A stretch of DNA of 64,000 bases from Escherichia phage wV7, in sequence record NC_019505.1; one strand, 5' to 3'. Below, in pieces: positions 45,465 to 48,070 of the stretch. Each line of letters begins with the position of its first letter. Positions within the stretch are counted from its first letter, which is position 1. The notes under the pieces are model-generated. The model was not told the DNA's origin and made no database searches. It saw nothing but the letters and a program-made list of their open reading frames with translations. The position numbers and the translations under genes were made by a program.

Positions 45465-46046
45465 TCATTTATATACTGATTCCGTAAGGGTTGTTACTTC
45501 ATCTATTTTATACCAATGCGTTTCAACCATTTCACGCTTGCTTATATCATCAAGAAAACTTACATCTAACTGAACCGTTGAATTAACACGATGCCTTTTA
45601 ACGATGCGGGAAACAACTACTTCATCCGCATAAGGTAATGCAGCATATAGTAGAGCGGGTCCTCCAATTACACTTACTTTGGAATTCTGATCAAGCATAG
45701 TCTCGAATGGTGCATTAGGGCTTGACACTTGAATTTCGCCACCAGAAATGTAAGTTATATATTGCGCCCAAGTAATATAGAAATGTGCTAAATCACCGTC
45801 TTTAGTTACAGGATAATCACGCTCAAGGTCACACACCACAATATGGCTACGACCGGGAAGTAATGTAGATAATGACTGGAACGTTTTAGCACCCATAATC
45901 ATAATTGTTCCTTCGGTACGAGCTTTAAAATTCTGGAGGTCCTTTTTAACTCGTCCCCATGGTAACCCATCACCTAAACCGAATGCTAATTCATTAAAGC
46001 CTTCGACTGTTTTAGTTGGAGCATAAGCAAATACTAATTTAATCAT
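45465..46046 (-). CDS. frd: Dihydrofolate reductase (193 aa)
   Basis: Length 193 aa as T4 Frd; DHFR-like N-terminal region. Confidence 0.9.
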
Positions 46047-46384
46047 TTTAATTCCTTAGTTGCCTTTTTGATGGCAGTAAAATCTTTGCGAATATCAAGA
46101 ACCAATTTATAAAGATGTTTAATTATATCTGTATCAAAATATGATACCGCACAACGAGAATTGCGAATATCTTCTAATGAATACTTGCTTTCACTTGTAC
46201 CATATCCAATGATACCACTAATGCACTTGTCATTAAGCGTATATTTCTGTGGACCATCAATAATATTTTTAGGATAGATGTAAAGGCTCCAATCAAATTT
46301 TTGTTCAAGCGTATTAACCTTAACTTCAAGAATCAGTTCAGGATGTGCATCATCTTTAGCAAAGCAAGTGTATTCAGTAAGCAT
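46043..46384 (-). CDS. Hypothetical protein (113 aa, frd.1-like)
   Basis: ORF track starts at 46423; ATG at 46384 preceded by GAGGAAAA. Confidence 0.55.
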
Positions 46385-46476
46385 TATATTTTCCTCAAAT
46401 TCATTTAAATCAAGACTATGCAATTTTTAAAGCATTGCATAATAGAATTCATCATTCATAAACTCAAATACAAAAA

Positions 46477-46836
46477 TTATATTATCTCCCATCGAAAAGG
46501 GTCAGGAGCATATCCGATAGAGTTAATCATTTTAACTAAAGTTACCATTCCTTTGTTAACTGCTTGTGCGATTTCATCAAAAACTTCATCGCTATCATCA
46601 TAAAGGTCATTAAAAAGTTCTAACACGTTCTTCTGAACTTTTAATTTATGACCAACAATCTCGCCTACAGTAAATTCGTTTCCGCCGATTCCAGTGTAAA
46701 ACGTAATTACACCAGTTAACAGACTTTCGCGAGAATCTAGGTCATGTGATAAATTAATATAAGCCATCCCGGGTGCAGTTTTAAGTTGGCAACGAATTCT
46801 TACTTGGGTAATTCCGGTTACATGAATGTCGGACAT
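46477..46836 (-). CDS. Hypothetical protein (119 aa)
   Basis: ORF track extends to 47001; ATG at 46836 preceded by GAGGAAAA. Confidence 0.5.
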   Translation of the reverse strand: MSDIHVTGITQVRIRCQLKTAPGMAYINLSHDLDSRESLLTGVITFYTGIGGNEFTVGEIVGHKLKVQKNVLELFNDLYDDSDEVFDEIAQAVNKGMVTLVKMINSIGYAPDPFRWEII

Positions 46837-46846
46837 ATTATTTTCC

Positions 46847-47086
46847 TCACGCTTTCTTAGCGACTTTCCAGTCAGCTTTAAATTGGTCAACGTCAGAGTG
46901 ATGAATCCAGAAACCAGATGAGCTACCATCTTCATAAAGAGGACAACCATCACACTCATCTTCCCATCCCATATCACGTAAAAGATGTTCAGCTTTTTCA
47001 ATGAGTTCAGAATCTTTACCGATGATATTAAAATACCATTTACCTCTAACTTCTGAATCTTTGATGCTCTGGCGTTGTAATCTCAT
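46847..47086 (-). CDS. Hypothetical protein (79 aa)
   Basis: ORF track extends to 47176; ATG at 47086 preceded by GAGGAGAA. Confidence 0.5.
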   Translation of the reverse strand: MRLQRQSIKDSEVRGKWYFNIIGKDSELIEKAEHLLRDMGWEDECDGCPLYEDGSSSGFWIHHSDVDQFKADWKVAKKA

Positions 47087-47144
47087 TTTATTCTCCTCAA
47101 GTTGATAGGGTAATAGTATCACACTACTACCCTGTTGTAAACAA

Positions 47145-47405
47145 TTATTTTTGAATTTTATCGAGCCACTTACCAAGCTTAATCATTTCTTTAGTAGCCT
47201 TTTCCATACTTCTGAACTTAACCAATAGAGGATAGGTATCGACACCCATAACTAAACTGGTTACAAGACTGTGTTCACCCACAAGCCATAACGAATACGT
47301 TTGAATATCGAGTCCGTAATTTCTGTCTTTATGGACCCGTACACCCATCACTTCAAATTTCTCACTAGCTTTTTCTACCGCATCCAGGAAATCATCTTTA
47401 GTCAT
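47145..47405 (-). CDS. Hypothetical protein (87 aa)
   Basis: ATG at 47405 lies directly after the upstream ORF stop; the ORF-track start 47447 is inside the neighbour. Confidence 0.5.
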   Translation of the reverse strand: MTKDDFLDAVEKASEKFEVMGVRVHKDRNYGLDIQTYSLWLVGEHSLVTSLVMGVDTYPLLVKFRSMEKATKEMIKLGKWLDKIQK

Positions 47406-47406
47406 A

Positions 47407-47793
47407 TTAGGCCTTAAAAGTTTTTCGCAAAAGTTCAATGATTTCATCTACATTGTTTTCGTCAACAATGCAGTGAATTTTTGTTACGCCAGAAACTATA
47501 CCTTCATTAGCGGATTGAGGCTTTTCTAAAGTTACCTCAGTAAAGTATTTGAATTCTTCAGAGTAAATCTCAAAATACGTCTCAAGTGGGCCACCCGCCA
47601 TGTATTCAGTGCCGTCTTCCATAGTTACACGTACCACACAGTCACCAGCACAATCATCACTTTCCATTTCATCTACAACAAAACTAGGTCCGTGCTTCTC
47701 TATTAAATTTAGCATCATTACATTGCAACGGCACTCGTTAGCAAAGTCATTTTTAAATAAAGGGTTAATGATATAAGTTTTTCCAACTTCCAC
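47407..47793 (-). CDS. Hypothetical protein (128 aa), apparent GTG start
   Basis: Start codon at 47793 is GTG with GAGGAAA upstream; Cys-rich N-terminal segment. Confidence 0.45.
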   Translation of the reverse strand: MEVGKTYIINPLFKNDFANECRCNVMMLNLIEKHGPSFVVDEMESDDCAGDCVVRVTMEDGTEYMAGGPLETYFEIYSEEFKYFTEVTLEKPQSANEGIVSGVTKIHCIVDENNVDEIIELLRKTFKA

Positions 47794-47839
47794 TTTGATT
47801 TCCTCATTTTAACGGGGCTATCAAATAGCCCCTTGATAA

Positions 47840-48070
47840 TTATTGTTCAATCAGTCCCATGTAAAATTCTGCGTCTTCAGAATCCATGCCATCGCAATAT
47901 TCATTAGCCATAAAGCGGGTAAGGTCTTCAAGAGGACCTTCAATGACAATAGAAAAATTGCAATAATTGGGATCATCATGAATACTTGTGATACTAAGTT
48001 CAGGATAACGATTACGAATAATCTCTTCAATATATTCAAAATCAACGATGTCAATATCAACTTTAGCCAT
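47840..48070 (-). CDS. Hypothetical acidic protein (76 aa)
   Basis: ORF track extends to 48196; ATG at 48070 preceded by AGAGGAAA. Confidence 0.5.

Follow-up and report, generated by a model that had tools for sequence, protein, structure and literature searches.

Small accessory genes between frd and gene 32 of Escherichia phage wV7: a widely shared trio and three optional cassettes

The region between the dihydrofolate reductase gene (frd) and gene 32 of Escherichia phage wV7 was analysed in a stretch of 64,000 nucleotides (nt) from record NC_019505.1, hereafter the window. Six small open reading frames (ORFs) fill positions 46043-48070 on the minus strand. Our favoured reading, to which we assign a probability of roughly 0.7, is that they constitute an island of small accessory genes that are probably switched on early and lie in a region of T4-like genomes already known as hyperplastic, and that this island combines a widely shared trio (frd.3, frd.2 and frd.1) with three optional cassettes (RB51ncORF239c, RB51ncORF237c and RB51ncORF236c; below 239c, 237c and 236c) exchanged by recombination. 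Both the sequence and its ORFs were public beforehand, as was the plastic nature of such regions: what we describe is an ordinary rediscovery of an annotated variable region in an RB51-type Tequatrovirus, a kind of T4-like plasticity that has been well described. The locus provides a very clean worked example of accessory-gene shuffling, with a scar in T4, the stub of a displaced cassette and a 10-nt joint serving at least three downstream ORFs. It also singles out 239c and, to a lesser degree, the DUF7247 protein (237c) and 236c as conserved, phage-only small proteins that would be cheap targets in screens for host-takeover or counter-defence factors; 239c in particular is nominated as a small protein of this kind that crosses phage families.

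Gene content of the frd-32 region

With ORF starts taken as annotated in identical public records, the island and its downstream anchor comprise the following genes (lengths in amino acids, aa):

45465-46046, minus strand: frd (dihydrofolate reductase), downstream anchor of the island
46043-46384, minus strand: 236c (RB51ncORF236c), 113 aa, ATG start; phrog_8592, no Pfam family; orphan family
46477-46836, minus strand: 237c (RB51ncORF237c), 119 aa; Pfam DUF7247; accessory gene
46847-47086, minus strand: frd.1 orthologue, 79 aa; Pfam DUF5417
47145-47405, minus strand: 239c (RB51ncORF239c), 86 aa; phrog_4423, no Pfam family; accessory gene
47407-47793, minus strand: frd.2 orthologue, 128 aa, GTG start; Pfam FRD2
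47840-48070, minus strand: frd.3 orthologue, 76 aa; Pfam Phage_FRD3

The six ORFs are consecutive and do not overlap one another, at a coding density of ~90%. An earlier note on this DNA had described six minus-strand ORFs of 76-128 aa between frd and gene 32, with good ribosome sites and a GTG start at 47793, and the description is borne out: all six are annotated in public records, each carries a GAGG or AAGG motif 6-9 nt upstream (read from the sequence), and the GTG is the start of frd.2 in the public annotation. A 126-aa form of 236c is a TTG extension of the 113-aa ATG form. Since the chance of an open frame of at least 76 codons at 36% G+C, computed from base composition, is ~0.004, six tandem ORFs on the same strand are not a product of chance. 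Their junctions are tight: the 239c start overlaps the frd.2 stop (TAATATG), the frd.1 stop sits within the ribosome site of 237c, and the frd start is overlapped by the 236c stop (ATGA).

By megablast, positions 45000-49500 are identical over their full length (100%) to E. coli O157 typing phage 7 (KP869105) and 99.4% identical to RB51 and RB68, both members of Tequatrovirus. The frd-32 region of these three phages does not differ in its genes from that of the window, the same six ORFs being annotated at the same coordinates (RB51ORF236-241; KP869105 ECTP7_01389-01394) with the extras labelled 'hypothetical protein'.

Comparison with T4 and other relatives

The remark in the earlier note that T4 carries only frd.1, frd.2 and frd.3 between frd and gene 32 agrees with the record (NC_000866 145762-146802), so that not all six ORFs have T4 orthologues. 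The T4 cluster has the same position, order and two promoter-like elements as the window; it differs in being without 239c and 236c and in starting frd.2 with ATG. After the frd.1 stop, T4 keeps a ribosome site, an ATG and ~57 nt of the DUF7247 gene, and then jumps to just upstream of frd. The remnant is an unannotated 16-codon ORF (NC_000866 145701-145751, complement) reading MYVIEIIQVSIRFQLK and then a stop, against MSDIHVTGITQVRIRCQLK in the window. Because T4 retains this scar of 237c, the apparent excess of 237c in the window reflects a loss in T4, which the alignment identifies as the reduced state for this gene. A further unannotated T4 ORF of 22 codons (NC_000866 146015-146083, complement), hydrophobic, with its own GGAG ribosome site and reading MFAPYIMAAVMLVCLYLLIKAC before its stop, lies between the internal promoter/hairpin and frd.1 and is missing from the window; it could be a small membrane peptide or filler.

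Gene content varies similarly among other relatives. RB69 has the minimal trio only. AR1 has 239c, 237c and a different 81-aa ORF (ar1_244) adjoining frd, and slur14 resembles AR1 without 239c. In the Gaprivervirus EAWsc9, 239c is present and frd.1 is joined directly to 236c, and the Mosigvirus FP43 has a 53%-identical homologue of 236c in the same slot. JS98 combines two frd.2 copies with 239c, a relocated frd.3, another ORF (orf229) and 236c; its frd.2 copies are tandem paralogues (frd.2a and frd.2b), and its frd.3 has moved downstream of 239c.

Mosaic boundaries, linker repeat and stub

The mosaic was mapped by nucleotide identities per segment and in sliding 60-nt windows. Identity to EAWsc9 lies at 93-100% in the last ~90 nt of frd.1 (46957-46868), throughout 236c and in the first ~40 nt of frd. 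Within this set the frd.1 end reaches 98-100%, as against only 70% to T4, and frd.1 is itself chimeric, its 5' two-thirds being T4/AR1-like. Beyond its first ~40 nt, frd matches T4 and AR1 at 93-100%, whereas its identity to EAWsc9 is only ~45-75% in most 60-nt windows and 66% for the gene as a whole. Given that the first ~40 nt are EAWsc9-like and the remainder T4/AR1-like, one crossover is placed inside the 5' end of frd. Between the EAWsc9-like segments, 237c and the adjoining 92-nt spacer (46836-46385) are AR1-like (80-93%) and absent from EAWsc9. The junction sequences reveal that this AR1-like block is bracketed by direct repeats of a 10-nt motif, and the spacer itself is a decayed gene:

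46839-46848, minus strand: left copy of the direct repeat GAGGAAAATA, a ribosome-site linker that includes the GA of the frd.1 stop TGA
46387-46396, minus strand: right copy of the same repeat, in the 236c ribosome site, at the switch from AR1-like to EAWsc9-like sequence
46385-46476, minus strand: pseudogene stub, the decayed 5' end (~30 codons, with an in-frame stop) of an ar1_244-type 81-aa ORF

The same linker, also given in the form GCGTGAGGAAAATA, precedes 236c in EAWsc9 (in one copy), orf229 in JS98, and 237c in both AR1 and the window. The spacer, 86% identical to AR1 at the nucleotide level, translates as IFVFEFMNDEFYYAML, a stop and KLHSLDLNEFEENI, against MIFVFEFMNDEFDYAIFNALHNPDLNEFKEMF in AR1_244, and an ar1_244-type ORF fills the corresponding slot in AR1 and slur14. 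As the spacer is a decayed stub of this type, 236c appears to have displaced the body of another cassette. The identity of the stub was recognised from a 196-aa protein on a 7462-bp Logan contig (P0046), in which the DUF7247 protein continues in frame into an ar1_244-type ORF, either because the two are fused or because a stop was lost. Identity across genera is also raised in a second module, made up of the 3' end of frd.2 together with 239c. The end-products preserved in these genomes thus present the window arrangement as a recombinant mosaic, in which the frd.1 3' end, 236c and the frd 5' end appear to come from a Gaprivervirus-like source and the 237c block from an AR1-like source.

The optional cassettes

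Full-length homologues of 236c, 237c and 239c are found in 78, 464 and 350 phage records, respectively. The ratio of nonsynonymous to synonymous substitution rates (dN/dS), computed by the Nei-Gojobori method against orthologues in other phages, is 0.034-0.037 for 239c (versus JS98 and EAWsc9) and ~0.10 for frd itself (versus JS98), which places 239c under tighter constraint than frd. For 236c the ratio is 0.10 (versus JS98), and for 237c it is ~0.5 (versus AR1 and slur14), which makes 237c constrained yet fast-evolving. All three are real genes evolving under purifying selection. AlphaFold2 (AF2) models of 236c and 239c are compact, with predicted local distance difference test (pLDDT) scores of 70-78.

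The 239c protein carries an invariant polar block (KDRNYGLDxQTYSLW), and its homologues span T4-like myoviruses, Phapecoctavirus and Klebsiella Webervirus siphoviruses. Both 239c and DUF7247 genes occur in arrays of small unnamed ORFs of unrelated phages. A pattern-based scan of limited sensitivity detected no 239c in bacterial genomes or prophages, and the 239c model returned no structural neighbour. Since a 61%-identical homologue in Phapecoctavirus vB_EcoM-Ro121c4YLVW (MH051333) sits in an unannotated gap between two coding sequences, the gene was missed in that record. We also considered a conserved Frd.2-239c pair beyond the T4-like phages and rejected it, because in KOX1 and Ro121c4YLVW the ORF that precedes the 239c homologue is unrelated to Frd.2 by sequence.

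The 237c protein matches DUF7247 (PF23905) over its full length (111.1 bits against a gathering threshold of 27, expectation value (E) 5e-32), and the family is carried by 20 out of 20 clusters of its homologues. The gene is 88% identical to that of AR1 at the nucleotide level, and neither JS98 nor EAWsc9 has it. Members of DUF7247 are present in Phapecoctavirus as well and, judged only by name, in a podovirus.

The 236c gene is 98% identical to its EAWsc9 counterpart (97% in protein). Its G+C content of 31.9% is lower than that of its neighbours (36.7-38.8%) and of the window (36.1% on average), which fits a foreign origin. An exhaustive profile search of 1.84e9 representatives for distant relatives of 236c gave only its own two clusters; a third match (P0050, 642 aa, in 7 stretches) proved to be a spurious hit to a repeat-rich, tail-fibre-like protein. 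Paralogy among the three cassettes, suggested by a weak Foldseek match of DUF7247, was discarded on hhalign probabilities of at most 0.3%.

Library searches added little. Sequence and profile searches of PDB with all six proteins, and with the 237c and 239c alignments, gave nothing meaningful; a scan of NCBIfam returned nothing, and Pfam and PHROGs placed the extras in families of unknown function at most. No homing endonuclease domain (GIY-YIG, HNH or similar) is present in any of the seven ORFs. The literature on frd.1, DUF7247, DUF5417 and the RB51ncORFs contains nothing functional, and the papers on HIDEN-SEQ and accessory-gene screens do not mention the frd region.

The shared trio

The product of frd.3 matches Phage_FRD3 (PF05798) at 129.6 bits (gathering threshold 28.1, E 6e-38). 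It is very acidic, with an isoelectric point of 4.05 and 19 acidic against 4 basic residues. At the nucleotide level the gene is 100% identical to AR1 and 91% to T4, and the protein is 87% identical to that of T4.

The frd.2 gene is a mosaic allele. Its product matches FRD2 (PF03197) over residues 27-127 (115.9 bits against a cut-off of 29, E 1.4e-33) and has a weak match to PHROG goF (E 0.006). In the alignment the C-terminal ~35 aa hardly differ from T4, whereas the N-terminal ~90 aa are 66% identical to RB69 and only 34% to T4; the N-terminal half has no nucleotide match in T4, AR1, slur14, JS98 or EAWsc9. In a census of alleles, this N-terminal class recurs at 90% identity or more in 88 records. 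The protein alignment also places several motifs of the N-terminal domain in JS98 frd.2a and matches the C-terminal domain to frd.2b and T4. The earlier note had remarked on a Cys-rich N-terminus, and four Cys (C21, C23, C48 and C52) are indeed present in this half; their conservation is not, since none of T4, AR1, slur14, JS98 or the 70%-identical RB69 allele retains the set, and a zinc or metal site was rejected on these grounds.

For the N-terminal domains of Frd.2, GoF and MotB.1 a common LSm-like fold has been predicted, a bent antiparallel beta-barrel of five strands (LSm/SH3-like) (Kim et al. 2025, PMC12152347). The window frd.2 has the two-part layout of that family (a variable N-terminal domain, a linker and a conserved C-terminal domain) and is linked to it by sequence, through Pfam FRD2 and PHROG goF; it differs in the allele class of its N-terminal domain, which is RB69-like. 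Only the GoF(D25Y) mutant altered the stability of a reporter RNA, wild-type GoF and MotB.1 having no such effect (PMC12152347). Expression of T4 frd.2 has been recorded at 5 min (PMC6070864).

The product of frd.1 matches DUF5417 (PF17438) at 118.7 bits (gathering threshold 23.9, E 1e-34) and is 90% identical to its T4 orthologue. Its ribosome site, GAGGAG (47090-47100, minus strand), contains GGAG, as it does in T4, while the other five ORFs have GAGGAA or AAGG. GGAG is the motif cut by the T4 RegB endoribonuclease in early mRNAs, and its presence may lead to a differential early shut-off of frd.1.

Promoters, hairpins and terminator

Five regulatory features were located in and above the island:

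48176-48194, minus strand: intrinsic terminator of gene 32, GGGGACC-CTAGA-GGTCCCC followed by a T-run; upstream boundary of the island
48114-48142, minus strand: early-promoter-like site upstream of frd.3, TTTACA-N17-TACTAT with TG before the -10 box; also in T4
47814-47832, minus strand: intergenic hairpin between frd.3 and frd.2, GGGGCUAU-UUG-AUAGCCCC, of the form GGGG...CCCC with no T-run; free energy -13.6 kcal/mol, z-score -2.4
47113-47141, minus strand: internal early-promoter-like site upstream of frd.1, TTTACA-N17-TACTAT with TG
47107-47133, minus strand: 12-bp hairpin over the -10 box of the internal promoter-like site; free energy -15.2 kcal/mol, z-score -2.4

The gene 32 hairpin, recovered by folding and conserved in T4, is the only terminator-like site in 45000-49300. 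The frd.3/frd.2 hairpin, of which T4 has a shorter version, was not scored as a terminator and may act as an attenuator or an RNA-stability element. The internal promoter/hairpin element directly follows the frd.2 stop in T4. A search of Rfam placed no described RNA family in the intergenic hairpins or elsewhere in the region. The T4 frd.3 transcript is among the most abundant phage RNAs capped with nicotinamide adenine dinucleotide (bioRxiv 10.1101/2024.04.04.588121), which fits a start site at the 48114-48142 element, a putative promoter in the window phage.

Cassette exchange and its published analogues

According to the favoured reading, the cassettes would be exchanged during co-infection by the recombination system of the phage itself. 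The necessary homology would be supplied by short regulatory linkers (the ribosome-site motif and the promoter/hairpin) and by the conserved flanking genes, following the logic published for PeSL elements. Each of the two early-type promoters, one ahead of frd.3 and the other ahead of frd.1, would start transcripts that probably continue into frd-td, because no internal terminator intervenes; translation might be coupled at the frd.2-239c, frd.1-237c and 236c-frd junctions. The products are unlikely to be enzymes, because they are too small and motif-poor. With low confidence, we suggest that they bind host or phage macromolecules stoichiometrically at an early stage of infection, that Frd.2 acts on RNA through its predicted LSm-like barrel, and that the optional three may be dispensable factors of host adaptation or counter-defence.

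PeSLs mediate the shuffling of ORFans in RB49 and phi1, where crossovers were mapped to the interval that separates the ribosome site from the -10 box (Arbiol et al. 2010, PMC2839356). The island resembles these cassettes in lying in a hyperplastic, ORFan-rich region with ORFan insertion, deletion and replacement between close relatives, in its two intergenic sigma-70-like early promoters (both consensus matches), in the stem-loop over the -10 box of the internal one (47141-47107), a layout that agrees with one described PeSL subclass, in an upstream promoter that has the gene 32 terminator hairpin beyond its -35 box, and in a crossover at a short conserved stretch around the ribosome site. 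It differs in having just one clear promoter/hairpin element inside the island, and in that its best-defined crossover uses the 10-nt ribosome-site repeat and frd.1/frd homology, not paired PeSLs; the 237c block is likewise flanked by the 10-nt repeats and not by full promoter/hairpin units. Hence, we call the mechanism PeSL-like without counting the locus among the PeSL cassettes. T-even elements at internal-protein (ip) loci have been considered analogues, not homologues, of the RB49 PeSLs (PMC2839356). These T-even ip loci hold small, non-homologous and interchangeable genes with a demonstrated anti-restriction role (Repoila 1994; Silas et al. 2025, PMC12373910). They are like the island in that swappable small genes occupy one constant place between promoter/stem-loop-like elements; the island proteins, read by eye, are without a recognisable capsid-targeting leader.

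Several observations weigh against this interpretation. Early expression, read-through and coupling are deduced from sequence and knowledge of T4, and the recombination pathway is likewise reconstructed from its end-products. The promoter calls are consensus matches whose overall count is no higher than in shuffled sequence. Bounded by a promoter/hairpin on its downstream side only, 239c is hence no textbook PeSL cassette. No fold, motif or library match backs a binding target or an anti-defence role. Finally, the evidence on the essentiality of frd.2 conflicts: among T4 genes of unknown function, it alone received the score 'Fit' in CRISPRi-ART (PMC11879866), whereas a T4 frd.2 amber mutant plates normally (PMC12152347), a conflict that polarity on downstream genes could explain.

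Alternative explanations

The alternative that survives best is more specific, and holds that at least one of 239c, 237c and 236c inhibits a bacterial immune system, so that the patchy distribution of the extras reflects an arms race. The presence or absence of the extras does vary among close relatives, 239c and DUF7247 have moved between unrelated phage families, 237c evolves fast (dN/dS ~0.5), the genes are small and stand behind early-type promoters, and other T-even variable loci, as noted, hold anti-restriction proteins. The earlier note had leaned in this direction, and its view of the region as a hyperplastic island stands. On the other hand, no result specifically supports the anti-defence role, which is a reasonable prior, and the very low dN/dS of 239c would be unusual for an arms-race binder. 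A PADLOC search, a partial test of anti-defence identity, gave no defence match apart from frd.2 against SduA at the level of noise (E 0.02). We therefore regard this explanation as possible, if on the improbable side. It is more doubtful still that 239c represents a new class of small phage effector, perhaps aimed at a conserved enterobacterial target or serving to bind a small molecule or signal, or, separately, that 236c is a partner of the dihydrofolate reductase or deoxynucleoside triphosphate (dNTP) complex.

In its stronger form, this last idea would link 236c in function, as a modulator or assembly factor, to dihydrofolate reductase or to the dNTP-synthesis machinery, and we consider it unlikely. 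The slot and the start/stop overlap with frd recur in four genera, even for the 53%-identical homologue; 'Dihydrofolate reductase' stands under the match in most of the matches listed; and the ATGA overlap implies translational coupling. However, a fixed position is equally expected from homologous recombination in the flanking frd.1 and frd, as the mosaic illustrates, and cassette exchange through this flanking homology explains it more simply. Moreover, frd is present without 236c in T4, RB69, AR1 and slur14, the overlapping slot is taken in AR1 by an unrelated ORF, and nothing in the 236c fold points to folate or nucleotide binding.

The extra ORFs might also be non-functional passengers or annotation artefacts in decaying intergenic DNA. 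Decayed pieces are indeed present, as the AR1_244 stub shows for the window and the DUF7247 scar for T4; no function is known for the extras, and T4 and RB69 manage without them. Their dN/dS ratios (0.03-0.10 for 239c and 236c across genera, 0.5 for 237c), their full-length conservation in 78 to 464 records, the ribosome site that each possesses and the compact models obtained nevertheless make this very improbable.

A toxin-antitoxin-like module, with 236c as a PemK/MazF-type toxin and an acidic neighbour as its antitoxin, is effectively refuted by sequence and fold: it draws on the label 'type II toxin-antitoxin system PemK/MazF family toxin' given to the 97%-identical EAWsc9 protein (PQ341120, XLZ23805.1) and on a sub-threshold RelB-like Pfam match of frd.3 (E 0.058), whereas 236c has no match in Pfam at E<=1, reaches an hhalign probability of 0.04% against E. 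coli MazF and has a model that departs from the SH3-like beta-barrel of MazF and CcdB. The label in PQ341120 is probably an over-annotation that could propagate.

Neighbouring genes

Just outside the island, an extra 115-aa ORF between td and frd (45098-45445, minus strand; RB32ORF229c, phrog_1928, no Pfam family) looks like another indel cassette. This ORF, noted in RB51 as 'flanked by 9 bp repeat', is found in AR1 and slur14 (97% nucleotide identity); JS98 and EAWsc9 lack it, as does T4, in which td overlaps frd. The td gene (44192-45052, minus strand) is intron-less in the window, encoding 286 aa without interruption, whereas T4 td carries the I-TevI intron. On the other side of the island, gene 59 directly follows gene 32 (49127-49225), and the segG homing-endonuclease gene of T4 is missing.

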